Positions 10,198 to 41,679 of a DNA stretch of 64,000 nt are shown here, piece by piece (positions within the stretch are counted from its first letter, which is position 1; the number at the start of each line of letters is the position of its first letter). The DNA is taken from the sequence record KP869100. One strand, written 5' to 3'. Both the position numbers and the translations under genes were made by a program. The DNA comes from Escherichia typing phage 1. The notes beneath the pieces were generated by a model, which was not told where the DNA came from, ran no database searches, and saw only the letters and a program-made list of their open reading frames with translations.

Positions 10198-10273
10198 TGG
10201 AGAATCCGAAGGGACTCGAACCCTTATAAACCTGTTTTGCAGACAGGCACATAGCCGTTTCTGTCACGGATTC
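10198..10273 (-). tRNA. tRNA-Cys (anticodon GCA)
   Basis: minus-strand cloverleaf: 7-bp acceptor GAATCCG/CGGATTC, anticodon loop CUGCAAA, T-loop TTCGAGT, discriminator U, encoded CCA. Confidence 0.7.
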
Positions 10274-10277
10274 AAAT

Positions 10278-10370
10278 TGGAGGAAGATACCAGACTTGAA
10301 CTGGTACACCGATTTCTCAGCTACTGGCAGTTTAGCAAACTGCTCCCTTACCTTTTAGGGTTAATCTTCC
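10278..10370 (-). tRNA. tRNA-Ser (anticodon GCU), type II
   Basis: acceptor GGAAGAT/ATCTTCC, anticodon loop UUGCUAA, long variable arm, T-loop TTCAAGT, encoded CCA. Confidence 0.65.
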
Positions 10371-10372
10371 AT

Positions 10373-17524: not shown

Positions 17525-17549
17525 CAACTTTTTTAACTTGCAATAGTTC

Positions 17550-25513: not shown

Positions 25514-25523
25514 AATATCTTAA

Positions 25524-25552
25524 GAGCCTCCTTAATTGGGGGCTTTTTTTAA
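25524..25552 (+). terminator. intrinsic terminator closing the plus-strand block
   Basis: AGCCTCC-ttaatt-GGGGGCT hairpin followed by TTTTTTT. Confidence 0.6.
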
Positions 25553-25560
25553 TTTTTATA

Positions 25561-27100
25561 AAAATTTTATCGGTTGTTCCAACCTCTGGGTCACCATCAT
25601 ATGTGAATAAAATATCTATCCTTCTTAACAACCTTCTTAATCTTACTCTCTATATATAGTTATATAGTACTATATAGTGTCTTAGTAACTATCTAGTGGT
25701 CTTAATAGCCCCTCTGTATAACCCTTCTAAATAGCCCTCTAAACACTCTTCTAACAAGCCTTCTTAACAACCTATACAATCACCTTAACCATCTCTCTAT
25801 ACGCTCTTAGAAGCCTCTATACACCCCTTAATCTCTATGTCAGCTATGATACTCTCTATAGGTGTTCACTAGGCACTACTAAGCCTCTATATAGACTGTT
25901 TTAACAAACTTAACAGGAATATCTTTACAGACCTTATCTCACAAGGTCTAACACGGTACTAACAAGGTATCTTATAAGCCTGTTTCTACCTGTATTTTTA
26001 AAAGACTGTATAAGTAATTATTCAGAATTTTAAAATTTTTATAAAATAAGACTGTCAAGTCATTTTTTAGGGTCTTTGAAGGAACTCAAAAATATCTGTA
26101 GAAGATGTATATCTGCTTGGTAGCCCTTAACAGCTCCCTTACAAGTACTTTGCAAAATTTTAAAATATCCTTAACAACATCTTAACAACTCTCTCAAGCT
26201 CTTAACATCTCTTCAAAGGTCTTAACAGTTTCTTAACAGAACTAACAAGAACTTAACAGTTTTCTAACAAGCTTTGGTAGGGCTTTACAGAATCTTAACA
26301 GATAACTAACAAGAGCTAACAAGTTAATTTTAAAGAGTTATTTTGTTAAGATAATTAACAAGTTCCTAACAAGTGTTTAATCTTTTTAACAAGCTATTAA
26401 CATGGTCACTATCTCTTTTCTTATCGTTCCCTTTCTCTCTTAGTGATTCTCTAAACATACCTTTTAAAAGCTCTCTATAGCTCCTTGTAAGCTCTTTTAA
26501 GCCTCTTCCTAGTATCTACCCCTCAACTGTATGGATAGCTCTTTATAGGGCTTTACAGGAGCTTTTAAGGCTATGTCAAAGGTTCTTACAAGGCTTTTAC
26601 GTGGTCTTAACAGAGATTTAACAAGGGGCTAACAAGTTGCTAACAAGTGCCTTAAAAGCATAACTATGTAGGGATTGTTAAGAAATTGTTAAGGGGGCTA
26701 GCATTTACGTAACTTTTAAGCTACTTCAAAGTAACTTTATAGCCCCTATAACATACTTTTAAGACACTAACAAGCCCTTTTTAGTAGTTCACAAGATAGC
26801 TAACGAGATGATAAAGCTCACACCCTTATAAGATTCTTTTAAGGCTCTAGAAAGCTCTATAAAGGGCTTTTTAGAGTGGGTTAATATGATTGCTTAAGTT
26901 AGGTTGATAAGGCTGTTATAGGGCTTTATAGAGCGTTTAAATGGTTGCCCTTCCCTTTCGGGTTATGGGCTTATATTTAAGTTGATTTGATAAGGGGTTA
27001 TAGAGTAAGCTATAGAGTTATTGCTTTTAAGGTACGGGATAGATTCTAGGAAGGAAAGGAAAGGGATTGTATAGAGTCTCTTTATAGACGTAAAAAAGCC
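25561..27100. repeat. 1.5-kb ORF-free, G-depleted region packed with short direct repeats
   Basis: no ORF of 60 aa or more on either strand; repeated words CTTAACA, CTAACAAG, CTCTATA, CTTTATAGGGC and CTTTTAAG; flanked by convergent operon ends. Confidence 0.6.
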
Positions 27101-27145
27101 CCTATGAGAAGGAGCTTTTCAGGTATCTGGGGCTATTTAGCCCCG
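27092..27145 (-). terminator. candidate terminator at the 3' end of the minus-strand early array
   Basis: GGGGCTATTTAGCCCC hairpin and a second GC stem followed on the minus strand by TTTTTT. Confidence 0.35.
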
Positions 27146-27154
27146 CTGCGTCGA

Positions 27155-27403
27155 TTAGTTGTAACCTTGTTTGCTGTAGTACAGAGAGACAATCAAGTCA
27201 CCCCAATAATGGTAGTGAGATTCCTCGTTTATGGCTTCTTTTACGGCATCTTTCCAGAAGTCATCAGTAGGGTTATAATCTGGTATCACCTGCTGAATCA
27301 GCATTTTGATAAGGTCAAAGGTGTTATCTGTTCCACCGATATCGAATTTTGCATCAAGTTGGTGGCAGCCATAAGCATTAACAGTTACGCGGATAGTTGA
27401 CAT
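27155..27403 (-). CDS. hypothetical small early protein
   Basis: 82-aa ORF preceded by a type A intergenic repeat. Confidence 0.5.
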   Translation of the reverse strand: MSTIRVTVNAYGCHQLDAKFDIGGTDNTFDLIKMLIQQVIPDYNPTDDFWKDAVKEAINEESHYHYWGDLIVSLYYSKQGYN

Positions 27404-27471
27404 AATTTAGAATCTCCAGTTTAGGACTTTATTTAGTGGGGAAGGTCATTCCCTCCCCGTTGTTTAGTAAT
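27404..27471 (-). repeat. type A intergenic repeat
   Basis: GGGGAGGGAATGACCTTCCCC hairpin then conserved AAACTGGAGATTCTAAATTATG leader (minus strand). Confidence 0.6.
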
Positions 27472-27735
27472 TTACTGCATATTGGCGTAGGTTGCAAGCC
27501 TTTTTTCGTTGTATTTTGTCAGAATTTCACAAGATAGAACATCGTACATTGTAACCGCTTTGCTTTTGTCGAGGTCAAAAAAGCCAAATGCTTTACCATC
27601 TTTGAATCCGACAACTTCGTAAGATTCTTTAATGATTTCACCATTGAACAAATCACTTTCGATACGGTGAAACAACGCTACGTCTTCTTTGTCAGTTGCA
27701 ATCTGCAATAGTGTGGTTAATTCTACGTGTTCCAT
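27472..27735 (-). CDS. hypothetical small early protein
   Basis: ORF 27472-27840 trimmed to the ATG at 27735 that directly follows the repeat leader. Confidence 0.5.
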   Translation of the reverse strand: MEHVELTTLLQIATDKEDVALFHRIESDLFNGEIIKESYEVVGFKDGKAFGFFDLDKSKAVTMYDVLSCEILTKYNEKRLATYANMQ

Positions 27736-27802
27736 TTTTGAATCTCCTAGTTTAAGGACTTTACTTAGTGGGAAGGTTAATCCCTCCCCGTTGATTGACA
27801 AT
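27736..27802 (-). repeat. type A intergenic repeat
   Basis: same hairpin and leader family. Confidence 0.6.
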
Positions 27803-28333
27803 TTACAGACTTTTGATTGTCTCGTCAATATCTTTTTCAATATCTTTTAAAGTTTTTTCTAAGTTCTTGATATTGAAGGATAAGCCTTCACCGAGAGTCT
27901 TAGAATAACCGCTAGGACGTAAATCATAAAGGCCAATTTGTTCTACATTGGAGAGGTTGACCATTTCACCGCTTACATCATAAGCTATTGATACGGTGTT
28001 TTCAGGGGCTTTATAGAACTTGTTAAGATTCTTGATAGAACGTTCATAAGCCATTTTATAACCATTTAAAAGGTCTTTAACGTGGTTGCGAACGTTTTTA
28101 CACTCATCTAAGTAAATACCTAAGAATAGCGGTAACAGTTCTGCTACAGCTTGCATAAAGTGAGATACTACAACAGTAGAAACATTACGACGATGTATAT
28201 AATAAGCCCCGTTTTCTGATTTAGTGATAGTTGCAAAGTGTACACCGTTGCAACGAAATTCGAAGGTATCTTTAACGGGTTTAGTCATAACGTTAGATGA
28301 GCGAATGTAGTTGATAGCTTGAAACTTGTTCAT
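27803..28333 (-). CDS. hypothetical early protein
   Basis: 176-aa ORF preceded by a type A repeat. Confidence 0.5.
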   Translation of the reverse strand: MNKFQAINYIRSSNVMTKPVKDTFEFRCNGVHFATITKSENGAYYIHRRNVSTVVVSHFMQAVAELLPLFLGIYLDECKNVRNHVKDLLNGYKMAYERSIKNLNKFYKAPENTVSIAYDVSGEMVNLSNVEQIGLYDLRPSGYSKTLGEGLSFNIKNLEKTLKDIEKDIDETIKSL

Positions 28334-28400
28334 TTTGAATCTCCTAGTTTAAGGACTTTACTTAGTGGGGAAGGTCATTCCCTCCCCGTTGTTTAGTACT
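28334..28400 (-). repeat. type A intergenic repeat
   Basis: GGGGAAGGTCATTCCCTCCCC core on the plus strand. Confidence 0.6.
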
Positions 28401-28493
28401 ATACTTGTTTTGATTTGCCTTTGCAAGCAATTTTTTAAGTTTATCTATAAAGAATCTATTAAGTGAATCCCTTTTAGATAACCCCCTCGAACA

Positions 28494-28522
28494 AAGTTAC
28501 CAATGTCAATGGGTATTGTCAA
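28494..28522 (-). promoter_or_regulatory. sigma70-like internal promoter of the early array
   Basis: minus strand reads TTGACA, 17-nt spacer, TAACTT, with a second TTGACA copy inside the spacer. Confidence 0.45.
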
Positions 28523-28554
28523 CACTTTTTTAAAAGTTTTTTGTAAGTTATTGA

Positions 28555-28896
28555 TTAACTTATGAAGATTTTTTCAGGCTTTACATAGCTGATACGCTGA
28601 CTTTTTAGCAGGTCATCCCAGATTAAAGCGGCAATATGTGCATAACCGGATTCACGTAAAAGCTTCATTGTTTTACTTCTCGTTTCAAAACGGCTTGCGT
28701 AGTATTCACTGTTCAAGGTCGTTTTATTCCCTTCGTTATCTGTATGGATGATTTGCATCACTTGAAAGGGGCTTACACCCTCGCCTTTGTTCCACTGTTC
28801 AAAGTATTTTAGGCACTGCATAGGTGACATCTTATCACTTACTTGAGTTGACCAAGATGAGCCAGCTTTATCGGTAATTACGGTTACATAAGCCAT
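28555..28896 (-). CDS. hypothetical small early protein
   Basis: 113-aa ORF preceded by a type B repeat. Confidence 0.5.
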   Translation of the reverse strand: MAYVTVITDKAGSSWSTQVSDKMSPMQCLKYFEQWNKGEGVSPFQVMQIIHTDNEGNKTTLNSEYYASRFETRSKTMKLLRESGYAHIAALIWDDLLKSQRISYVKPEKIFIS

Positions 28897-28981
28897 TTTA
28901 GAATCTCCAGTTTAGGATTGAGTGGTAAAGCTCTTTATCTGGGGCTTACTATACAGACTAATAAGCCCCATGTAAAGTACT
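28897..28981 (-). repeat. type B intergenic repeat
   Basis: perfect inverted repeat GGGGCTTA...TAAGCCCC plus conserved TTGTAAAGTACTTTA and the shared leader. Confidence 0.6.
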
Positions 28982-29230
28982 TTAAGCGTCTTTATATTCT
29001 ATCTCTGTGCACTCACCTTTTACTAGCTCAAAGGTCCAAATAATTCGTTTATACTCAATCACTACTACAGTAACAAGGTCAGTCCTCTTCTCATTGGTTT
29101 TAAAGTCTATTGTGTGGGTATACTCATAACTAGTCTTATCCTTAATTTCCCCGTAGCGTCTACACTCTTTATAGACTTCATCCATTAAGCCATTGCTAAC
29201 CATGTTTTTTAGTTGAGTTTTAGTATACAT
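28982..29230 (-). CDS. hypothetical small early protein
   Basis: 82-aa ORF preceded by a type A repeat. Confidence 0.5.
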   Translation of the reverse strand: MYTKTQLKNMVSNGLMDEVYKECRRYGEIKDKTSYEYTHTIDFKTNEKRTDLVTVVVIEYKRIIWTFELVKGECTEIEYKDA

Positions 29231-29323
29231 TTTTTGGAATCTCCTAGTTTAAGGACTTTACTTAGTGGGGAAGGTCATTCCCTCCCCGTTGATTGATAAT
29301 TTACAGACTTTTATCAGGCTTGT
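29231..29323 (-). repeat. type A intergenic repeat
   Basis: same hairpin and leader family. Confidence 0.6.
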
Positions 29324-29557
29324 CTAGTCTTTTTCAATGATAATTTCATATTGACCATCGACACTGTCGAAATAGATTCCTTCGTCATCTTCTGTCTTAA
29401 AGTAACATTGTATATCATCACTGGCGGGGTAGTCTTGTCTTGCTATCTGGCAAACTTGAATAGCATTTTCTTTACTTCCTGTAAACTCTTCAAGCCCTTT
29501 AAAGTCACATGAATGGCCGTTACAAATGGAAAGGATGAGATAAATGGTTGTAAGCAT
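29324..29557 (-). CDS. hypothetical small early protein
   Basis: 77-aa ORF; upstream spacer carries a different small hairpin CCCCTGTAAGGGG. Confidence 0.45.
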   Translation of the reverse strand: MLTTIYLILSICNGHSCDFKGLEEFTGSKENAIQVCQIARQDYPASDDIQCYFKTEDDEGIYFDSVDGQYEIIIEKD

Positions 29558-29623
29558 GATTTAAGCCCTCTAAAAGCCCCTGTAAGGGGTTAATCAGTGT
29601 TTATAAGGTGAATGTATAGGTTT

Positions 29624-30166
29624 TTAGAAAAAGACCTTTAAATCACTCTCTACAATGTTTTCTGTCAGTGTATCCATGATGTCACAAAAAACCTGAATAC
29701 TGTCGGATTGTTGGATACTTTTAGCAAGTAGCTCCAATGTTTCATCAAGATAATTTAAATTTGGGTTATCCAGTGAAGGGAGACAAAAAGGTGAATACAT
29801 AGCGTTGAACTCTGTTGTATAGACCTTTTTAATCCAATTTACATCAAAGTACTCTGTAAAGCTTGCTATATTTGACATGTTATCACAAGAATAATCATCA
29901 TTTAGCTCATCCTCTGGAATGTCAAGTTCTAAGATAACAATATTTTGAGTTTTCATCTGAAAAGCTGCCGTGATAGTGGCATTTCCTAGAGCTTGCTGGA
30001 TACCTTCCGATGCTATCTCTTCCTCATCATCACCATAGAGTTTATTTTCTGGGTACACGTAAAAATTGCCGTCCATATCCGAACAATTCCATACACCTGA
30101 TGGTTTATCACCGTTATTAATCAGGTTAATAAAGTTTTCTTGAGTAGTACCGTGAAAGCATTTCAT
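29624..30166 (-). CDS. hypothetical early protein with N-terminal H-G-T motif
   Basis: 180-aa acidic ORF starting MKCFHGTT; preceded by a type B repeat. Confidence 0.5.
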   Translation of the reverse strand: MKCFHGTTQENFINLINNGDKPSGVWNCSDMDGNFYVYPENKLYGDDEEEIASEGIQQALGNATITAAFQMKTQNIVILELDIPEDELNDDYSCDNMSNIASFTEYFDVNWIKKVYTTEFNAMYSPFCLPSLDNPNLNYLDETLELLAKSIQQSDSIQVFCDIMDTLTENIVESDLKVFF

Positions 30167-30259
30167 TTTGAATCTCCTAGTTTAAGGATTTAGTGGTAAA
30201 GCTCTTTATCTGGGGCTTACTTTATCGAACTATAAGCCCCTTGTAAAGTACTTTATCAG
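30167..30259 (-). repeat. type B intergenic repeat
   Basis: GGGGCTTA...TAAGCCCC inverted repeat plus shared leader. Confidence 0.6.
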
Positions 30260-30457
30260 TTAATTTTTGACAACTTTTAAAACTGCAAGATAACCTAAGC
30301 AATAAGAATCACCGAAGAGAGTTCTACCCATGAAAGAATCATCTTTGATATCCTTTGCAGTGACTGTTTTTTCTACGCCGTGGGAAAGAACTACATCACC
30401 AACTTTAATGTCTTTGATGTGCGTGGTTTCAATGGTTAAACCGTTGATAATAGCCAT
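30260..30457 (-). CDS. hypothetical small early protein
   Basis: 65-aa ORF preceded by a type A repeat. Confidence 0.45.
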   Translation of the reverse strand: MAIINGLTIETTHIKDIKVGDVVLSHGVEKTVTAKDIKDDSFMGRTLFGDSYCLGYLAVLKVVKN

Positions 30458-30558
30458 TTTGAATCTCCTAGTTTAAGGACTTTACTTAGTGGGGAAGGTC
30501 ATTCCCTCCCCGTTGATGTGTAATTTAATCTATCTAAAAATCAGTGTCAATAAAATTT
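30458..30558 (-). repeat. type A intergenic repeat
   Basis: same hairpin and leader family. Confidence 0.6.
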
Positions 30559-30963
30559 TTAGAGTTCTGCATAAATTGCGTCGCAGATGTCACGAAAGTC
30601 ATGATTTGCCAAATTACGTTGTAACCAAGTGGCAAAGAAATCAGCGATTGCAAAATTAGCATCATACTCAACAGATAGCCACACTTTCACGGCAAATCTA
30701 AACATTTTCAAGTCTAACTCTTTATTCATTACCTTAGATTTGCCTAACATGTCGACCATTTCATATTGTGCACCGTCTAGCGTGATACCTGCTGCAACGT
30801 CAGCCAATGAGTTTTTTACGTTTTCAACGTCTAAGATAACGCTTTGAATCTTTCCGATAATGTTGTGCAATGTTTCATCCGGTGCTGATGATGTAATAAC
30901 ATTGATTCGATTAACGGTTAAACGTGCTTTTAAGATTGACAACTCACGATTATTAATAGCCAT
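30559..30963 (-). CDS. hypothetical early protein
   Basis: 134-aa ORF preceded by a type B repeat. Confidence 0.5.
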   Translation of the reverse strand: MAINNRELSILKARLTVNRINVITSSAPDETLHNIIGKIQSVILDVENVKNSLADVAAGITLDGAQYEMVDMLGKSKVMNKELDLKMFRFAVKVWLSVEYDANFAIADFFATWLQRNLANHDFRDICDAIYAEL

Positions 30964-31048
30964 TTTAGAATCTCCAATTTAGGATTGAGTGGTAAAGCTC
31001 TTTATCTGGGGCTTACTGTACAGACTAATAAGCCCCCTGTAAAGTACT
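30964..31048 (-). repeat. type B intergenic repeat
   Basis: GGGGCTTA...TAAGCCCC inverted repeat plus shared leader. Confidence 0.6.
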
Positions 31049-31321
31049 TTATACTAAATGCAGTTTTTTACCTTTTACTATGATGTAACTTGATGTGCTA
31101 TTGCTACATACATCCTGATAAATTCTGCGCAAACGTCCTTCATAGTATACTTTCCAGCTAGTTGGAATCTTTTTGCCGTATCCGGTAGCAGTTTTTTGGA
31201 GTCCTGCGACTTGCCAATCTAAGATATGTTGCTCAGCCTGTAAATCCTCAAAGTGCATCACACCGTCTACATAGTGACGTAGAGTGACATTTAAAGTGCG
31301 ACCGTTGTTAGTAGTATACAT
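31049..31321 (-). CDS. hypothetical small early protein
   Basis: 90-aa ORF preceded by a variant type A repeat. Confidence 0.5.
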   Translation of the reverse strand: MYTTNNGRTLNVTLRHYVDGVMHFEDLQAEQHILDWQVAGLQKTATGYGKKIPTSWKVYYEGRLRRIYQDVCSNSTSSYIIVKGKKLHLV

Positions 31322-31410
31322 TTTAGAATCTCCTAGTTTAAGGACTTTATTTAGTGGGGTGTTTATTGCCTCCCCGTTGATGTGTAATTTAATCTATCTA
31401 AAAATCAGTG
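31322..31410 (-). repeat. type A intergenic repeat (variant hairpin)
   Basis: GGGGTGTTTATTGCCTCCCC variant of the hairpin; same leader. Confidence 0.5.
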
Positions 31411-31743
31411 TCAACAGTTTTGTTTTCGTTTGCTCAACTCTTGAACAATTACAGTATGATAGTCTTTTAAGTCACTAATATTTAAAGCATTTATCAGAGA
31501 ATTATAATCATCGACTAATTGAAAATCATCTTTGAAAATGTCGCTGATTTGATAAGTTCTCGCCCTGAATCTGAAGCTCATTTCTAACCGCTTTAATTGT
31601 TCATCGCTCAACCGCTCTAGAAAGCTCATTACAAGGCTATTGCTAACCTGTTGTGTGATTGCCTTATTTGCTAGATTATAGGCTTTATATGCCTTATAGA
31701 GCGCGAAAATGGCAATGATTGCAGTGATACCAGTCATTAACAT
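31411..31743 (-). CDS. hypothetical membrane-anchored early protein
   Basis: 110-aa ORF with N-terminal hydrophobic helix (GITAIIAIFALY). Confidence 0.45.
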   Translation of the reverse strand: MLMTGITAIIAIFALYKAYKAYNLANKAITQQVSNSLVMSFLERLSDEQLKRLEMSFRFRARTYQISDIFKDDFQLVDDYNSLINALNISDLKDYHTVIVQELSKRKQNC

Positions 31744-32033
31744 GGTGCTTCCTCTTTACGTGATACTTTGCCATTTACAGTTATCTCATAAGAATCTAGT
31801 AAATCGCTTTTAGATTTGACAGGACTTTTAAGAGTATCATCATAGATATTAACTTGCAATACAGGTTTTTTATACTCCCTGCAACTATTCCATAAGCAAA
31901 TCACTACACGACGACCTTTTATTTTGCCGTGTAACCATTCCATAACATCATGGCTATTTCTTGATGTTTCAATGAAATCAATTTTGTTGAGTAATTTGCT
32001 TAGATTTTCACGAACTTTATTTGATAATTTCAT
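31737..32033 (-). CDS. hypothetical small early protein
   Basis: 98-aa ORF preceded by a type B repeat. Confidence 0.5.
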   Translation of the reverse strand: MKLSNKVRENLSKLLNKIDFIETSRNSHDVMEWLHGKIKGRRVVICLWNSCREYKKPVLQVNIYDDTLKSPVKSKSDLLDSYEITVNGKVSRKEEAPC

Positions 32034-32121
32034 TTTTGAATCTCCAGTTTAGGATTGAGTGGTAAAGCTCTTTATCTGGGGCTTAAGATACCAACTTTTA
32101 AGCCCCTTGTAAAGTACTTTA
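32034..32121 (-). repeat. type B intergenic repeat
   Basis: GGGGCTTA...TAAGCCCC inverted repeat plus shared leader. Confidence 0.6.
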
Positions 32122-32412
32122 TCAGTTAATTTTCAGCTTTGCATAACCTCTCATTGTACGAATTGGAGATGTTAAGGCTACGCGTCTAATATATGCCTTT
32201 TTCGTGTATACATTTGTCTTTCCGATAGTGTTTACACATGTAAAAAGATTTATTGGTGAATTTTTTAACTTCAACTGTTTATCAGCCTTCACACCCCATC
32301 TTACAGCAGATTGTTTTCCGTTGTCAACCACTTTCCCGCCTAACTTTTTCGCCATGATGCGAGCGTCATCACGAGTTTTTACAGGAATTACAACGTTTTT
32401 GATAGTAGCCAT
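32122..32412 (-). CDS. hypothetical small early protein
   Basis: 96-aa basic ORF preceded by a type B repeat. Confidence 0.5.
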   Translation of the reverse strand: MATIKNVVIPVKTRDDARIMAKKLGGKVVDNGKQSAVRWGVKADKQLKLKNSPINLFTCVNTIGKTNVYTKKAYIRRVALTSPIRTMRGYAKLKIN

Positions 32413-32500
32413 TTTTGAATCTCCAATTTAGGATTTAGTGGTAAAGCTCTTTATCTGGGGCTTACTTTATCGAACTATAAGCCCCTTGTAAAGTACTTTA
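32413..32500 (-). repeat. type B intergenic repeat
   Basis: nearly identical to the copy at 30167-30259. Confidence 0.6.
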
Positions 32501-32881
32501 TCAGTTAATTTTGAAGATTGTTACATAACCATCACTACCGATTATTTGAGACACTCCAGCTTTTTCTACTTGATAGCCCATATTTTCAAGATGATAAACA
32601 GCATCATCGTAACCATATGCGCCACCCTGATAACGTCTCTTATCGCATCTTATCAGGTTTTTACCACGTCCAGCAAGTGCATGTAAAATGGCTTTTTCAC
32701 TTGAAAGAGTACCATCTAGCATTGTCGCCGTGTAATGGTTAATTTTATTCCCATTGATATCATACTTAAAATTAAACGAGTGAACAACAATAACGTTACC
32801 TTTAAAATTCTCATCAAGTGACTTCTCCAGTGCGTTGCGAAAGTTGTCTTTGTTGATGAATTTAGGTGCACGATATGCCAT
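32501..32881 (-). CDS. hypothetical early protein
   Basis: 126-aa ORF preceded by a type B repeat. Confidence 0.5.
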   Translation of the reverse strand: MAYRAPKFINKDNFRNALEKSLDENFKGNVIVVHSFNFKYDINGNKINHYTATMLDGTLSSEKAILHALAGRGKNLIRCDKRRYQGGAYGYDDAVYHLENMGYQVEKAGVSQIIGSDGYVTIFKIN

Positions 32882-32972
32882 TTTTGAATCTCCTAGTTTA
32901 AGGGTTGATTTGGTAAAGCTCTTTATCTGGGGCTTAAGATATCAGCTTTTAAGCCCCTTGTAAAGTACTTTA
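32882..32972 (-). repeat. type B intergenic repeat
   Basis: GGGGCTTA...TAAGCCCC inverted repeat plus shared leader. Confidence 0.6.
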
Positions 32973-33179
32973 TTAGGCATCGTAGTAATAAACTGCTGTC
33001 TGTCTTATGTACTTTCTTGTATTTCTTGTAAGGTAGCAATTAGAGTTTATAGCTGTTTCTACATAGTTGCAATAGTCAGCCTCTGATATTCTAGACCATG
33101 CGCCACATACTTGCATGTAAAAACGTTTTACCTTTGTGTTAACGTTAGTTGTAACCATCAATTCACGACTATAAAGCAT
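32973..33179 (-). CDS. hypothetical small early protein (first gene after the promoter)
   Basis: 68-aa ORF with GGAG ribosome-binding site. Confidence 0.45.
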   Translation of the reverse strand: MLYSRELMVTTNVNTKVKRFYMQVCGAWSRISEADYCNYVETAINSNCYLTRNTRKYIRQTAVYYYDA

Positions 33180-33228
33180 TTTCGATTCTCCAGTTTAGGA
33201 AGTGGGCTTGCTTGCCCGTCTGATGCAA

Positions 33229-33257
33229 ATAGTACGTAAACTTGTTTGGCGTGTCAA
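33229..33257 (-). promoter_or_regulatory. strong sigma70-like promoter driving the early array
   Basis: minus strand reads TTGACA, 17-nt spacer (cgccaaacaagtttacg), TACTAT, about 50 nt upstream of the first ATG. Confidence 0.6.
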
Positions 33258-33436
33258 CGGTTTTTATTAAATATTTTTTGTAAGGTTGGGAAATGAACGG
33301 GCGCGCACGACTACCACAAAACAGAACACAAATCAAGAATTATTTTTCAACCCGCTACAAATTTTTCTCTTGACTTTTGGGGAGAGGTGGAGTAAGAGGG
33401 GGAGAGGGGTTGGTCTGGCTCTCTATAAAAACCTAC

Positions 33437-33613
33437 CTGCACGATTCTAAAATGATTTTTCTTGCCCGACCTGAGCGGGGTCTGCACGTTTTGAAAATGA
33501 AAAAGCTCTTTGGAGATTACCTGCACAGTTTGAAAATGAATTTTCTCTTTGGAGTTCAAAATTCTCTCTACAGATTTCTCTACAGAACTCTACCTGCACA
33601 ATCCTGAAATGAA
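33437..33613. repeat. four direct repeats CCTGCAC-N-TTYTGAAAATGA in a non-coding spacer
   Basis: copies near 33437, 33482, 33530 and 33594, spaced 44-64 bp, plus duplicated CTCTACAGA. Confidence 0.55.
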
Positions 33614-33685
33614 AAAGCCCTCCTTACCTGAAAAATTTACCAGATAAAGAAGGCTTAGTCTATTGTGAATATTATACAGAGTTTC

Positions 33686-34471
33686 TTAGTTCTTTGCGTC
33701 TAAGAAGGTAACTTCTGGTGAAGAGAAGACCGTCTCGATATCCTCATCAGTTCTTGCATAAATATATGTATCTGCATCACTGCCAAATGTTACGGCTATC
33801 CTGTGATTGCTCTTCGACAGGTGGGTAACTAGAGCGTTACTTAGAGACATCTTCTCAACCGGAGGGTTACTTTGATGTATCTTACCTTTTCTTCGTCTGA
33901 AGAGGGTAACTGTATCATCTTTGAACGTTACTACACCTGCAAAGTATTCTGGTTCACAGTAGTTATTCCAACCTGAGCGTAACTTGTGGTACATCTCTCC
34001 TTCGTAGACATACAGATAAACATCTACACTCTTCATCACCTGATTAATGATAACTGTGACGGCTTGAGGGTCAAGTCCACCGATACCTGCACCAATCATA
34101 GGTAAACCAACCTTCTTCAACTGATTAACTTCACAGTATCTGTTAAGCTGTTTCAAAGATGACTCTAAAGCACTGTATCGGGCATCTTTACCAGTCTTAA
34201 GCTGAGTGTAAAGGTTAGCTATACGACCTTGTTTTAAACGTGCTACAGAGAAATTACCCAGTAAATTTTCACAGGGTTTGTGTCCTATACCACCTGCATA
34301 CAGATAAACTTCTGTATCGGTCTCATATGCTTTTGGGTAAAGTTTAGAAATCTTGTCAGCGATACCTGCACCCATTAAATTCATACAGTTGCAACCGTGA
34401 CCGATGATGTCAAACTTACCTTTATCAAATGCGGCAAAGATATCACCATTAATTATTTTTACAATACCCAT
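33686..34471 (-). CDS. macro-domain protein (ADP-ribose binding/processing) with unknown C-terminal extension
   Basis: N-terminal INGDIF...DIIGHGCNCMNLMGAGIA and later GLPMIGAGIGGL match the two glycine-rich macro-domain motifs. Confidence 0.65.
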   Translation of the reverse strand: MGIVKIINGDIFAAFDKGKFDIIGHGCNCMNLMGAGIADKISKLYPKAYETDTEVYLYAGGIGHKPCENLLGNFSVARLKQGRIANLYTQLKTGKDARYSALESSLKQLNRYCEVNQLKKVGLPMIGAGIGGLDPQAVTVIINQVMKSVDVYLYVYEGEMYHKLRSGWNNYCEPEYFAGVVTFKDDTVTLFRRRKGKIHQSNPPVEKMSLSNALVTHLSKSNHRIAVTFGSDADTYIYARTDEDIETVFSSPEVTFLDAKN

Positions 34472-39233: not shown

Positions 39234-39312
39234 CTTATTACTCTCTCTTGTTAGTTAATCAATCAATTTGTGAGGCTATTCTAAGGGGCTTCAAAGCCCC
39301 TTGTCAAACACT

Positions 39313-41679
39313 TTAATCGTAAATTGTTGTACCTTCTGGAACACATTTCACATTAAAGCCTAAAAACTTACTCACTTCGATAGGTGATACTTTATTCCAA
39401 TCTAAGTGTGAAAGCAAGAAGTTTTCTTGTTTTCTTTTTGAAAGATAGTTTGTCAGCTTGATAACCATGCGGTCACCTGCTTTTTTAATCTTTTTGTACA
39501 GTTTTGTGTCATTATCAAGGCATGACTTCAAATCCTGAAGAACACTGATAGTGTAAGTGTATGCAAACGGTGCAGCCACATACTGAATCTTACCGAACAT
39601 TGCCTCAACAGCATCTTCATTCCCTTCTAAGAAGATTGTCTTAATAGTATCCCTTGAATAACAATACCCGCGAGAAATCTTCCTGTTATTGAACGTAAAG
39701 TTTCTGGCAATAATCCAACTGCTTGTAAGGTCGAGGACACCATCCATGTAGATGCGTGTCATATACCTGTTATGGTTAATCCAATGAACATCAGTTAAGC
39801 TGTCGTTCAAGAGCTTCTCATCTACTTCAATCCAGTCTTCTGGTATCTTTTTCCAATTTGCTTTTCGGAAAACATAGACTGTCTTGCCTGTAACATTAGC
39901 AACTGACTTAGCTACATCCTCTGGAGATGAGCAAAAACATCTACCATCAACTGTGTCACCTACTGCCTTAATATAAAGCTGAGGCTCTTCAATTGTGTCT
40001 AAGTCTTCTGACACCTCTTTGTATGAAGCTTTAGTTTCTGCTGGAACAGCTTTCCAGAGTTTTACAACACCCCTTACAGCTTCTTTACGCTGATAGTGGT
40101 GTTCCTTATCAGACATCTTCACAATCTTTAACAAGCTTTTATCAAGTTTGTGTAGATTGATTAAATCATCTAACTCTTTTTCAGTCGAGAATACAAAGAC
40201 AATACCATTGTATCTGTGAAACAGATTTGACTCACTGGCGTAGTCTCGACATGCACCACGCAAAATTTGATTGCGTCCTACAGTCTTCTCAGTACCGTTT
40301 TTATTGCGACGGTCATTAATCACGAACAAAAACTGTTCAATTTGGCTTTTACGCATTGCACCAAAGATATTGAACATGCTTGCCTCTTGAGTGTAGGAAA
40401 GTGCTGTTGCACGAATCTTACTCTCTAAAGAGTTGAACTTGACATAAGCAACTGGGTCATAAAGATAATCTACTTTAGGGATATTGTTCCCGTTCCTATC
40501 AACCTTAATATTGCCTTTACCGTCACGTTCATAAATGACTGAGCCGTCTTCTGCGTAGATAATTCCACGACGAATGTTTAACAATTCTTCTTCCAGAGAA
40601 TCAAGCTTAATGCCTCCCCACTCTAGCTTTGGACACACAGCATTAAACATCTCTCGTGAGTTCAAACGTAGCTCTGCATAAGCCTGTGCAGCATCCATGA
40701 GTGTAGGTTGGCTATTAACTTTCTTGATAACATCCTTTGTAATTGCTTCAGTTATCTTTTTGGTAGCCTCGATGATAACATTTTTTGTCGTATCATTCAT
40801 CTGCAATGCTTCACGAGAAGCTGCTATAGCAACTGAACCAATAGGCATGTAGATGTTTACAAGGTCTACGCTCCTACGGAAAAACTCTGGCAAGACTTTG
40901 AAGAAATCATCACCAAGTAATGCTTCCATGTTCACTGGATAGGCAATATTACCCATCACCACATTAAACTCTGTCCTGTTACCACTAGAACGCCAGCTTT
41001 GCTTATGAATCATGGCATCATAAACACCTTCTTCACGGGCAATGACGTTCATATCTGCTAATACATCGTCGTACTCAATATTACTTTCTGGTTTTACAGT
41101 GAAGTATGAGTACACATTTCCAGCTTCTTCAAAGAACTTTGAGATACGGTGGTCAGCAACTGCCACACGTACAGCTAAACCATTAGGTTCTTTTGTTGGG
41201 TTAGTGGTCAGCTTAGTTACTTGAGGGATACCATTCTCAAGATAAACAGAGTACTTATTAACAACACCATCAACATAGCTAGATACTGTGAATGACTGAG
41301 CAATTGCAAATGGGGATTTTGAGCCGATACCCATTGCACCAATGTAGTCATTAGAGTCATTCTTCGTAGAAGCCCCGTAGTTTAGGTACAAACTCATAAC
41401 TTTATCATGAGTCAATCCAGTTCCAAAATCACGAACTTCAAAGTAAGGCTCAAAACGAGTAGGTAAATGCACATGGAACGGAATGTTCTCTTTTCCAGCT
41501 TCTTTCTGAGCATCTACTGCGTTACATGACAGTTCACGAATCACTGCCCTTTCTTTAAAGGTATATACACCAGAACTCAAAAGGCTGAACATCTCAGGTG
41601 TCATTGTAATCTGTGCTTGAGACGTCTCTAAAGAAGTTGAACTCTTAATCACTTCTGCGTGGTCATTTACCATGCGCAT
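39313..41679 (-). CDS. rIIA-like protein with N-terminal GHKL-type ATPase domain
   Basis: Bergerat-fold motifs ELSCNAVDA, DFGTGL and GAMGIGSKS in the N-terminal region; 788 aa. Confidence 0.5.
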   Translation of the reverse strand: MRMVNDHAEVIKSSTSLETSQAQITMTPEMFSLLSSGVYTFKERAVIRELSCNAVDAQKEAGKENIPFHVHLPTRFEPYFEVRDFGTGLTHDKVMSLYLNYGASTKNDSNDYIGAMGIGSKSPFAIAQSFTVSSYVDGVVNKYSVYLENGIPQVTKLTTNPTKEPNGLAVRVAVADHRISKFFEEAGNVYSYFTVKPESNIEYDDVLADMNVIAREEGVYDAMIHKQSWRSSGNRTEFNVVMGNIAYPVNMEALLGDDFFKVLPEFFRRSVDLVNIYMPIGSVAIAASREALQMNDTTKNVIIEATKKITEAITKDVIKKVNSQPTLMDAAQAYAELRLNSREMFNAVCPKLEWGGIKLDSLEEELLNIRRGIIYAEDGSVIYERDGKGNIKVDRNGNNIPKVDYLYDPVAYVKFNSLESKIRATALSYTQEASMFNIFGAMRKSQIEQFLFVINDRRNKNGTEKTVGRNQILRGACRDYASESNLFHRYNGIVFVFSTEKELDDLINLHKLDKSLLKIVKMSDKEHHYQRKEAVRGVVKLWKAVPAETKASYKEVSEDLDTIEEPQLYIKAVGDTVDGRCFCSSPEDVAKSVANVTGKTVYVFRKANWKKIPEDWIEVDEKLLNDSLTDVHWINHNRYMTRIYMDGVLDLTSSWIIARNFTFNNRKISRGYCYSRDTIKTIFLEGNEDAVEAMFGKIQYVAAPFAYTYTISVLQDLKSCLDNDTKLYKKIKKAGDRMVIKLTNYLSKRKQENFLLSHLDWNKVSPIEVSKFLGFNVKCVPEGTTIYD

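Follow-up and report, generated by a model that had tools for sequence, protein, structure and literature searches.

The closest known kind of system to the locus described here is the PeSL cassettes of T4-like phages, whose stem-loops lowered the expression of a downstream reporter (PMC2839356). Start-associated repeats (SAS and ESAS) are found in cluster K mycobacteriophages, and the genome announcement of phage Mordin likened a 26-bp repeat to SAS (PMC4611695). Papers on the Felix O1 group have already listed the repeats, without reading them as cassettes of promoter, hairpin, and leader.

We analyzed a window of 64,000 nucleotides (the whole stretch of DNA under study) from a Felixounavirus with 99.9% identity to E. 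coli O157 typing phage 15 (TP15). As with the PeSL cassettes, genes bounded by repeats are gained, lost, and reordered; likeness to SAS/ESAS is probably limited to the leader module. From its sequence, the array is probably a hyperplastic early region of self-contained expression cassettes, served by composite repeats with three signals.

Organization of the array

The array consists of 15 ORFs of 65–180 amino acids (aa) each on the minus strand (27155-33179), which bears out the run of about 15 small genes noted in the first-pass annotation and agrees with the CDS annotation of TP15 and wV8, two near-identical phages. Twelve genes had been said to be preceded by a repeat element; this holds for six type A and six type B copies, but the count rises to 13 of 15 with a degenerate type A copy (A*). 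The copies align as two families, confirming the existence of the repeat array as first described, although the families are interleaved rather than strictly alternating: A*, B, B, B, (overlapping gene), A, B, A, B, (terminator-like gap), A, B, A, A, A. A search of the 64-kb window found no full-length A or B copy outside the array. Chance expectation is 0.00 matches for each hairpin pattern, and the leader pattern has nine matches against 0.44 expected. The features are as follows, gene families f1 to f15 corresponding to genes 1 to 15.

33615..33656, minus: intrinsic terminator 3' of the macro-domain gene, the array's upstream boundary (terminator scan)
33177..33263, minus: A* and the first promoter, P1, upstream of gene 1 (type A nhmmer model, score 41.7)
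32973..33179, minus: gene 1 (68 aa), variable; missing in wV8, DE17, and UAB_Phi87
32879..32981, minus: type B, upstream of gene 2; promoter-like TTTACA-17-TATCTT at 32964-32936
32501..32881, minus: gene 2 (126 aa)
32410..32508, minus: type B, upstream of gene 3; TTTACA-17-TAAAGT at 32492-32464
32122..32412, minus: gene 3 (96 aa)
32031..32129, minus: type B, upstream of gene 4; TTTACA-17-TATCTT at 32113-32085
31411..32033, minus: genes 4 (98 aa) and 5 (110 aa), with stop/start overlap
31320..31420, minus: type A, upstream of gene 6; TTGACA-17-TAAATT at 31414-31386
31049..31321, minus: gene 6 (90 aa), core
30961..31058, minus: type B, upstream of gene 7; TTTACA-17-TACAGT at 31043-31015
30559..30963, minus: gene 7 (134 aa), found in 37 of 37 loci
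30455..30554, minus: type A, upstream of gene 8; TTGACA-17-TAAATT at 30550-30522
30260..30457, minus: gene 8 (65 aa), variable
30166..30263, minus: type B, upstream of gene 9; TTTACA-17-TAAAGT at 30247-30219
29624..30166, minus: gene 9 (180 aa), tentative ADP-ribosyltransferase-like predicted fold
29570..29589, minus: short terminator-like hairpin CCCCTTACAGGGGCTTTT in the gap of genes 9 and 10, read from the sequence
29324..29557, minus: gene 10 (77 aa)
29233..29332, minus: type A, upstream of gene 11; TAGACA-17-TAAATT at 29326-29298
28982..29230, minus: gene 11 (82 aa), a rare cassette (6 of 37 loci)
28894..28991, minus: type B, upstream of gene 12; TTTACA-17-TATAGT at 28976-28948
28555..28896, minus: gene 12 (113 aa), core
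28420..28554, minus: non-coding and strongly conserved; includes TTGACA-17-TAACTT at 28522-28494 and a hairpin of 45 nt (predicted)
28331..28432, minus: type A, upstream of gene 13; TTGCAA-17-TATAGT at 28426-28398
27803..28333, minus: gene 13 (176 aa)
27734..27833, minus: type A, upstream of gene 14; TTGACG-17-TAAATT at 27828-27800
27472..27735, minus: gene 14 (87 aa), a cassette in 19 of 37 loci
27404..27503, minus: type A, upstream of gene 15; TTGCAA-17-TAAATT at 27497-27469, within gene 14
27155..27403, minus: gene 15 (82 aa), the array's final gene
27144-27129, minus: B-like hairpin GGGGCTAAATAGCCCC-AGATA at the array end
27119-27092, minus: intrinsic terminator AAAAGCTCC..GGGGCTTTTTT at the array end, 3' of the B-like hairpin

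The upstream terminator, with a stem of 17 pairs followed by a T run, corresponds to Felix O1 t13 (equal relative position in Felix O1 Table 2), and the terminator at the array end to t23; the end region as a whole (27092..27144) folds at -28.5 kcal/mol (z -3.8). The hairpin at 29570..29589 is labelled a terminator in the wV8 record, is absent from the terminator scan list, and folds unremarkably (z -0.6). The gap that holds it has no A or B element, and genes 9 and 10 are not once separated in relatives (none of 29). There is likewise no element between genes 4 and 5, which behave as a single cassette, split in one of 30 comparisons; the product of gene 5 has a hydrophobic segment at its N terminus.

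Signals within the repeats

The array had been described as driven by two promoters, at 33257-33229 and 28522-28494. A scan for consensus promoters, scored as matches out of 12 hexamer positions at 17-nt spacing, picked up the first (P1, TTGACA-17-TACTAT) together with five of the six type A and all six type B sites, at 9–10 matches; the gene 15 site (8 of 12) falls under the threshold and was read from the alignment. The second proposed promoter is also under the threshold, but lies in a stretch at least 90% conserved over 26 distinct versions. Two promoters are probably too few, each A or B copy bearing its own sigma70-like -35/-10 pair. Across 150 distinct type A and 161 distinct type B copies from a comparison set of 37 related loci, both hexamers show conservation, unlike the spacer. 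Such sequence counts lack phylogenetic independence.

Type A copies have an A-rich upstream tract, a TTGACA-like -35, a free 17-nt spacer, and a TAAATT-like -10. The -35 is conserved even inside upstream coding sequence: it overlaps the gene 10 stop codon in the gene 11 element and, with the spacer, lies within gene 13 in the gene 14 element. The hairpin, GGGGAGGGAATGACCTTCCCC in four of six copies and variant in the other two, begins 10 nt past the -10, about 2–3 nt from the predicted transcript 5' end. The gene 6 element carries a weak variant (GGGGAGGCAATAAACACCCC), and A* has the hairpin GGGCAAGCAAGCCC and the leader CCTAAACTGGAGAATCGAAA. All 42 distinct type A hairpin sequences fold (-5.6 to -15.6 kcal/mol), more stably on the sense strand than on the antisense strand (32 vs 9, p=3e-4). 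In 122 distinct copies 93% of stem cells are paired, pair 6 is G.U in 98, and double changes occur at four of eight pairs, with a score reached by none of 500 shuffles.

Type B copies combine AAAGTAC and a TTTACA -35 with a 17-nt spacer and a TAnnnT -10, and all six carry the inverted repeat GGGGCTTA..TAAGCCCC. This hairpin occupies the spacer and overlaps the -10, so only read-through transcripts from the upstream gene would contain it. In such transcripts the flanking boxes TAAAGTACTTTA and TAAAGAGCTTTA would close it into a predicted interrupted helix of about 20 bp (59 nt, including an internal loop; -24 kcal/mol, with a z of about -3). All 45 listed sequences, of 62 distinct, fold, and 97% of inner-stem cells are paired. 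Within the inner stem, Kolesnikvirus has UA in place of GC (GGTG/CACC), CG alternates with UG, and the apical pair occurs as six different types; the stem's covariation of 0.127, vs 0.062 in shuffles, was reached by none of 500, and RNAalifold independently predicted the same architecture. The outer stem is invariant and hence gives no covariation evidence; it could alternatively be two protein-binding boxes. Among 51 distinct cores from three genera, the -10 always opens with T and A and almost always closes with T, whereas its middle three positions vary, as does the remainder of the loop; the hexamers match the consensus at only 3–5 of 6 positions. The closing T and the TTTACA -35 also lie in predicted stems, so their conservation is perhaps partly structural. 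The same AAAG..CTTGACA context is also found ahead of further promoter-like sites, such as one upstream of the tRNA cluster.

Both types had been said to end in the same leader. They are indeed common over the final ~35 nt and only there, but this leader has two forms, CCTTAAACTAGGAG and CCTAAACTGGAG, with the pattern (T)CC(T)-TAAACT-(A)GGAGATTC-AAAA-ATG. Its Shine-Dalgarno sequence lies inside a predicted mini-hairpin of 3–4 bp. The extra T and extra A are fully coupled (both in 110 copies, neither in 180, one alone in none), which could be mere linkage of sites 6 nt apart; Kolesnikvirus leaders retain the CCUU..AAGG pairing.

Cassette variation in related phages

Cassette swapping, suggested in the first-pass annotation, is supported by gene gain, loss, replacement, and reordering at the repeats. 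The 37 loci show about 30 architectures of 9–19 genes each, and f8/f23, f11, and f17 change their order between genomes. Elements make up 22% of the array and contain 1,238 of 1,463 internal homology breakpoints (85%), although enrichment between genes is expected anyway, since indels survive only if they preserve genes. Breaks occur in 140 of 326 comparisons at junctions that have an element and in one of 59 at junctions that do not; the element junction between f6 and f7 is never broken in these comparisons. Compared with the wV8 group (99.6% identical), the window has a single structural breakpoint in the array, which lies in the type B element at 32879..32981. At the gene 4 junction (32031..32129), 24 relatives carry a 170-aa cassette (f21) and an extra B copy. 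A given gene has A in some genomes and B in others (for gene 12, A in 17 relatives and B in seven), and leader forms are mixed. Crossovers fall in the hairpin or the leader; the promoter half of an element remains attached to the gene upstream. Several small variable ORFs (f18, f19, f20, f25, and f29) lack elements on one or both sides.

Roles of the repeats and of the genes

In the cassette reading that we favor, the first signal of each repeat would be a host sigma70 promoter and the second a G-run/C-run stem-loop working in sense-strand RNA; this hairpin is retained through compensatory changes in three genera. The type A hairpin would probably be a 5'-terminal stabilizer, and that of type B likely a 3'-end structure (attenuator, stabilizer, or processing site) in read-through RNA. 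The leader, the third signal, may be a translation-initiation or operator module shared by the cassettes. Since nearly every gene has 60–100 bp of the same sequence ahead of it in direct orientation, homologous recombination could act between copies to delete, insert, replace, and reorder genes, and a moved gene would retain its promoter and ribosome-binding site.

Alternatively, as in the T7 early region, the hairpins might be RNase III/RNase E processing and stabilizer signals and the hexamers incidental, with P1 (33257-33229), and perhaps 28522-28494, giving long polycistronic RNAs that are cut into stable monocistronic mRNAs. The read-through type B helix resembles known RNase III substrates in size and shape, G.U pairs indicate structure in sense-strand RNA, and, since the only terminator-like hairpin inside the array is weak and unlisted by the scan, read-through is likely. 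Processing is compatible with the promoter reading but unlikely to be the sole explanation, as it accounts neither for conserved hexamers around a free spacer, nor for the invariant TA of the type B -10 in a variable loop, nor for a type A -35 conserved inside coding sequence.

It is less probable still that the repeats function in translation only, as proposed for SAS/ESAS and suggested for the Mordin repeat. A ribosome component or phage regulator would then bind the leader, either alone or along with the inverted repeat upstream of it. The leader is conserved beyond the Shine-Dalgarno sequence in both families and across genera, the coupled T/A insertion preserves the mini-hairpin that sequesters it, and the SAS comparison had been made for Mordin (PMC4611695). 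This explanation is probably correct for the leader module only; -35/-10 conservation 40–90 nt upstream of the start codon, and a type B hairpin upstream of the predicted transcription start, would go unexplained.

We consider it improbable that the inner inverted repeat of type B, together with the AAAG-NN-CTTT boxes, offers palindromic DNA sites at which a dimeric phage or host regulator switches the promoters off or on. The boxes flank the type B promoter core and are invariant in three genera despite stem changes, and changes in both palindrome half-sites would mimic RNA covariation. However, symmetry at the DNA level is lost through G.U (U.G) pairs in most type A and about half of the type B copies, the left box can also be read as an UP-like element plus -35 that is present at non-palindromic promoters, and no candidate regulator was found. 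An equally doubtful proposal is that the hairpins are rho-independent terminators insulating genes or blocking antisense transcription from convergent genes. The wV8 GenBank record places terminators over three elements, though not on the strand that carries the genes, and PeSL stem-loops did cut reporter expression (PMC2839356), but the scan reports none at A or B elements, and neither hairpin has a sense-strand U tract after it, which makes terminator function doubtful. Selfish REP/MITE-like repeats, spread into intergenic gaps without a role in expression, would fit the many near-identical copies with an inverted repeat at each core, but are highly improbable given that the copies share one orientation, are limited to one array, contain a Shine-Dalgarno sequence, stop exactly at the start codon, and have kept their architecture in different genera through compensatory changes.

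As to the host-takeover and anti-defence roles suggested in the first-pass annotation, Pfam gave no match for any array protein, and ten proteins compared with PHROGs all belong to families without known function. Structure prediction suggests, with moderate confidence, an ADP-ribosyltransferase-like fold for gene 9; if right, this fits host takeover but proves nothing. We found no RNA-seq study of any Felixounavirus in the literature. The description of the genes as early agrees in part with an RT-PCR table for Felix O1, in which four of seven listed array ORFs (16, 20, 21, and 22) peak at 5 min, but three at 25 min (PMC3185647).

Organization of the array and its repeat elements

The window is most similar to E. 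coli O157 typing phage 15 (99.9% identity by megablast) and to wV8 (99.6%), which places it in the genus Felixounavirus; a megablast search with the region itself matched 253 phage records, although only patchily. Fifteen open reading frames (ORFs) of 65-180 amino acids, all on the minus strand and consistent with the deposited annotations, fill the array, which lies among the following features:

33686-34471: macro-domain gene, upstream of the array
33656-33615: intrinsic terminator, upstream of the array (terminator scan)
27155-33179, minus strand: array of fifteen small genes (genes 1-15)
27119-27092: strong terminator, downstream of the array (fold prediction)

Within the array, the G+C-rich hairpin with an adjoining U tract on the transcribed strand that defines a rho-independent terminator is found only at the array end (27119-27092).

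Repeat finding and profile searches identified six copies each of two intergenic elements, type A and type B, in the window, as well as a seventh, degenerate type A copy behind the first array promoter (TTGACA-17-TACTAT, 33257-33229). The repeat array reported in the first-pass annotation is thus real, as are its two families, but their order is interleaved and not, as had been proposed, strictly alternating. By chance, no match would be expected for either hairpin pattern and 0.44 for the leader, of which 9 matches were observed. Full-length copies are confined to 27.4-33.3 kb of the 64-kb window, with none elsewhere. Two junctions are free of elements: that of genes 4 and 5, which overlap, and that of genes 9 and 10, which are separated by a short terminator-like hairpin.

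In aligned type A copies, an A-rich tract precedes a -35 resembling TTGACA and, after a 17-nt spacer, a -10 that reads TAAATT or TATAGT. Ten nucleotides, the last of them TCAAC, separate the -10 from the hairpin GGGGAGGG-AATGA-CCTTCCCC, after which come ACTAAGTAAAGT and the leader. The spacer varies among copies and often lies inside the upstream gene. Across 150 distinct copies from 37 loci, conservation extends over both hexamers and all of the sequence from the -10 on, but not over the spacer, the signature of a sigma70 promoter. In a structure-aware alignment of 122 distinct copies, 93% of cells in the stem are paired, four of the eight pairs show changes on both sides, and 98 copies have G.U as the sixth pair. 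Folding is also better for the sense than for the antisense strand. Together, these features argue for an RNA structure on the coding strand. Transcription starting 6-8 nt after the -10 would place only 2-3 unpaired nucleotides before the hairpin. Hairpins that act as 5' stabilizers have few unpaired nucleotides ahead of them at the RNA 5' end, and by analogy we infer that the type A hairpin would be placed like one of these.

Type B elements are arranged as TAA-AGTACTTTACA-N-GGGGCTTA-loop-TAAGCCCC-AGATAAAGAGCTTTACC, followed by the leader. All six copies contain a promoter-like TTTACA-17-TAnnnT, and among 161 distinct copies the hexamers are conserved, the spacer is free, and an A-rich tract lies upstream. 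Across 51 distinct cores from three genera (Felixounavirus, Mooglevirus, and Kolesnikvirus), the TA at the start of the -10 is invariant, and the middle positions of this hexamer vary along with the remainder of the loop. The inner stem stays paired despite a GC-to-UA exchange in Kolesnikvirus (GGTG/CACC), alternation of CG with UG, and the occurrence of six pair types at the apical position, and its covariation is greater than in all of 500 shuffles. The -10 lies in the loop and 3' arm, so RNA begun at this promoter would lack the hairpin, which only RNA reading through from upstream would contain. In such read-through RNA, the flanking boxes are predicted to pair in a second helix, for a total of approximately 20 bp (helices of 11 and 9 bp around a 3x3 internal loop; -24 kcal/mol, z about -3). 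This outer helix is invariant, so its pairing is a prediction and the boxes are open to other readings; the left box, for example, matches an UP-like tract plus -35 that also occurs at other promoter-like sites in the window (39314, 17519, and 15403). Neither hairpin is followed by a U tract, their 3' flanks being ACTAAGTAAAG and AGATAAAGAG, and a terminator scan of the window listed no type A or type B hairpin.

Several other readings of these sequences were considered and rejected. Interpretation of AAAGTGCTTTA as a T4 MotA box is disfavored by its distance from the -10 (approximately 19 nt, not approximately 12) and by reports that the group lacks MotA/AsiA-type functions. A second promoter at the right-hand box of type B (TTTACC-16/17-GAGATT/AGATTC) would have a poor -10 and is not kept in Kolesnikvirus. 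Likeness of the type B loop TCGATAAAGT to a high-affinity H-NS site is limited to one loop variant and was set aside. The density of promoter-like sites across the window is not distinctive at a threshold of at least 10 of 12 matches and was dropped as an argument.

The leader is common to both families and has two forms, CCT-TAAACT-A-GGAG and CC-TAAACT-GGAG; every element copy ends in GGAG(A)TTC-N3-5-ATG. In a set of 290 distinct leaders, the additional T and A of the longer form are strictly coupled: both are present in 110 and neither in 180, with no leader having the one or the other alone. Together they would lengthen by one U-A pair a 3-bp helix (UCC/GGA) that holds the Shine-Dalgarno sequence. 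This mini-helix is present in fold predictions, and Kolesnikvirus leaders retain CCUU..AAGG; alternatively, the coupling may be mere linkage of sites 6 nt apart. A 26-bp version of the leader was noted previously in the announcement of the Mordin genome, where it was likened to start-associated sequences (PMC4611695). Cleavage of GGAG leaders by a RegB-like nuclease is without support, as the "RegB-like" note in Mordin belongs to a transglycosylase-type protein.

Variation of the array among related phages

Gene families and elements were mapped in 37 loci (the window, nine annotated loci, and 27 loci from IMG/VR), with families f1-f15 corresponding to genes 1-15 and those from f16 upward being seen in relatives. 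The array ranges from nine genes in Felix O1 to as many as 19 elsewhere, in about 30 architectures, while the block upstream of it keeps its gene order. Five families (f4-f7 and f12) are near-universal; f1, f2, f3, f8, f11, f14, and about fifteen others are present in some genomes and missing from others, and the order of f8/f23, f11, and f17 is not the same across genomes.

This variation is concentrated at the elements. Of 1463 internal homology breakpoints, 85% lie no more than 10 nt from an element; elements make up 22% of the array. As an internal control, junctions with an element were broken in 140 of 326 cases, compared with one of 59 for the two element-free junctions, which include a 66-nt gap between genes 9 and 10. 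Junction sequences place the crossovers within the hairpin or leader, with the promoter half staying attached to the upstream gene. One and the same gene may carry either type of element depending on the genome (type B in 16 and type A in 12 for f2; type A in 17 and type B in 7 for f12), and hairpin and leader variants are reassorted among genomes. Some indels do not have an element on both sides, and the f6-f7 junction, which has an element, is never broken.

Both families of elements occur throughout Felixounavirus and Mooglevirus, and type B is recognizable in Kolesnikvirus phages of Erwinia and Hafnia. The syntenic Kolesnikvirus array contains homologous type B elements together with a second type having a hairpin in the spacer and a type consisting of hairpin plus leader. 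Apart from two records with odd names (Staphylococcus phage SA1 and one Campylobacter record), matches to the elements were found only in records of Ounavirinae.

The proposal in the first-pass annotation that cassettes are swapped here holds: breakpoints and broken junctions concentrate at the elements, and the array is best read as the product of cassette-wise exchange in a hyperplastic early region. The two promoters that had been thought to drive the array are replaced, given the -35/-10 pairs conserved at the elements, by one predicted promoter per cassette.

Comparison with known repeat systems

The closest parallel is with the promoter-early stem-loops (PeSLs) of T4-like phages, as defined by Arbiol et al. 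(2010; PMC2839356) and Comeau et al. (2014; PMC4122927). Both are repeated intergenic motifs of approximately 100 bp. At the sequence level, the elements have an early promoter of the sigma70 type, its -35 preceded by an AT-rich tract. They also have the stem-loop with G runs and C runs that in PeSLs lies between the -35 and -10, over the -10, or downstream: that of type B (GGGGCTTA..TAAGCCCC) is in the spacer and over the -10, and that of type A (GGGGAGGG..CCTTCCCC) past the -10, both supported by compensatory changes. Every element copy has a Shine-Dalgarno sequence and start codon at its 3' end. Like PeSLs, the elements are clustered in a hyperplastic region beside genes without known homologues, and indels and replacements between related phages end in them.

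There are also differences. PeSLs were described from T4-like myoviruses, whereas the window belongs to the Ounavirinae, and the likeness drawn here is one of architecture. PeSLs are a looser motif, with five positional subclasses dispersed over hyperplastic regions, in contrast to two sharply defined families in a single array; the shared leader with its own mini-hairpin and the extra outer helix of type B are unlike PeSLs. Promoter activity, terminator or attenuator activity, and mini-circles that form when neighboring copies recombine have been demonstrated by experiment for PeSLs (PMC2839356; PMC4122927), whereas the elements are described here from sequence. Because the elements share the sequence features of PeSLs but not their taxonomic scope, they would work like PeSLs while lying outside the described set, and on these features we regard them as an independent version of a PeSL-like design. 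No literature linking the Felix O1 group to PeSLs was found.

The start-associated sequence (SAS) of cluster K mycobacteriophages, described by Pope et al. (2011; PMC3203893), is a conserved, asymmetric 13-bp motif, GGGATAGGAGCCC, that lies immediately before start codons. SAS and the leader are both short and asymmetric, contain the ribosome-binding site, occur in one orientation before a subset of genes, and can include the stop codon of the upstream gene. They agree in position and orientation, but GGGATAGGAGCCC is unrelated in sequence to CC(T)TAAACT(A)GGAGATTC; moreover, the SAS phages are temperate siphoviruses of mycobacteria, their sites are scattered along the genome, and SAS elements are not described as promoters. 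Approximately half of SAS sites are preceded by an extended SAS (ESAS), 17-bp imperfect inverted repeats with a variable spacer; Pope et al. saw little evidence that these form a hairpin in mRNA (PMC3203893). In the array, an inverted repeat lies upstream of the leader in all copies (8-9 bp, or 20 bp with the outer helix) and overlaps or follows the promoter, and compensatory changes, reportedly absent in ESAS, favor a hairpin.

Two further likenesses are of shape only. Stem-loops at the 5' terminus of mRNA, of the ompA type, are stabilizers, and T7 early mRNA has intercistronic RNase III sites, double-stranded RNA of about two helical turns that often includes an internal loop; these sites are not known to overlap promoters. 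The type A hairpin, a few nucleotides from the predicted 5' end, resembles the former; the type B read-through helix (approximately 20 bp with an internal loop, between early genes) resembles the latter.

Parts of the repeats had been recorded previously. The Felix O1 genome paper lists, without comment, repeats of 57 bp (the core of type B) and 39 bp (the promoter of type A) between genes 15/16, 19/20, 18/19, and 20/21, and omits them from its list of predicted promoters (PMC3185647). The GenBank record of wV8 annotates the repeats as direct repeats DR_1 to DR_9, some of them also as terminators on the opposite strand, and some records tag single copies as "promoter" or "terminator." These earlier sources on the Felix O1 group do not include a reading of the repeats as composite cassettes, a comparison across genomes, or a link to variation in gene content. 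By RT-PCR in Felix O1, ORFs 16, 20, 21, and 22 peak at 5 min, and the peak for ORFs 17, 19, and 23 comes at 25 min (PMC3185647). Our literature search found no transcript map for the Felix O1-like group, in which the organization of early transcription is stated to be unknown (PMC3185647; PMC4690856).

A broader reading, which we offer tentatively and consider rather unlikely when taken as a whole, is that Ounavirinae carry an integrase-free gene-cassette system built on a "socket" of stacked signals. Such a socket would combine a host promoter, a covarying RNA hairpin, and a mini-hairpin sequestering the Shine-Dalgarno sequence, so that a small gene recombined into the array would be expressed at once. 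The entire set could also come under the joint control of a putative trans-acting factor that reads the AAAG-NN-CTTT boxes or the invariant leader, and the type B spacer hairpin would tie the end of each transcript to the beginning of its successor.

In PeSL-type architecture, repeats with a regulatory role also serve as sites of recombination at which accessory genes are shuffled. The apparent recurrence of this architecture in a second, unrelated subfamily of virulent myoviruses points to a general route by which large lytic phages maintain rapid turnover of their early genes. The analysis predicts 13 early promoters in 6 kb, each at an exact position. The roughly 30 accessory early gene families that vary in presence are a candidate list for host-takeover or anti-defense screens. 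Felix O1-like phages are classical typing phages of Salmonella and are now candidates for biocontrol and therapy; natural insertion sites at which a promoter and ribosome-binding site are already predicted to be present would be useful in phage engineering.

Array proteins and neighboring sequences

Searches of all 15 array proteins against Pfam gave no family match, and the ten that were compared with PHROGs matched only families of unknown function. Sequence searches of the PDB with genes 2, 7, 9, and 13 found no match, nor did a profile of gene 9 homologues. For gene 9 (29624-30166), the predicted fold resembles that of an ADP-ribosyltransferase and an H..Y..E pattern is conserved, and the protein encoded just upstream of the array (33686-34471) has a macro domain; such domains bind or remove ADP-ribose. 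Among 5.8 billion proteins searched, the named sources of gene 9 homologues are Felix O1-like phages or E. coli/Shigella records, long contigs that contain them are 84-90 kb, and there was no sign of transfer beyond the Felix O1-like group. Rfam gave no credible match in 26500-34000 at E values up to 1, and only tRNAs across the whole window.

Three unrelated genes lying upstream of type B copies have their final codons within the repeat (…AAAATTAACTGA; 32501-32515, 32122-32136, and 30260-30274), and their products end in KIN, KIN, and KN, respectively, before the stop codon; this suggests past crossovers just within coding sequence. Outside the array, on the minus strand at 39271-39323, a promoter-like site also has a spacer hairpin (AAAGTGTTTGACA-AGGGGCTTTGAAGCCCCT-TAGAAT), so the hairpin-in-spacer design is not restricted to type B. 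Two other promoter-like sites on this strand (15350-15403 and 17470-17535), in an AAAGT.CTTGACA context, lie upstream of a cluster of 26 tRNA genes (10198-15340), and the site at 17519 is followed by TATAAATA, the T4 late-promoter motif.

Phages of the wV8 type diverge from the window upstream of 32900. The record of typing phage 15 (KP869113), a "partial genome," aligns only from 27198 on, whereas wV8 aligns through to 27100; the typing phage 15 record annotates a shorter gene 15 (74 versus 82 amino acids), and the mismatch at 27100-27198 is probably an assembly or rearrangement difference in that record. Between the array end and the convergent plus-strand genes, approximately 1.6 kb (25514-27100) contains no ORF of at least 60 amino acids and is full of short degenerate repeats (CTTTTAAG, CTATAAAG/CTTTATAG, and TAACAAG); the same unannotated gap is present in wV8 and Felix O1 and is unusual in a genome so compact. 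At the other end, the stretch from the upstream terminator to the first array promoter contains CTGCAC(R)nTTTGAAAATGAA in four to five iteron-like copies (33400-33630), which could be regulator-binding or replication-related sites.

Within the array, the first approximately 135 nt of the region between genes 12 and 13 (28420-28554) are at least 90% conserved among 26 distinct versions, more so than the adjoining type A element. This stretch contains TTGACA-17-TAACTT and a predicted 45-nt hairpin (z -2.4), and may be a small RNA or a regulatory leader.
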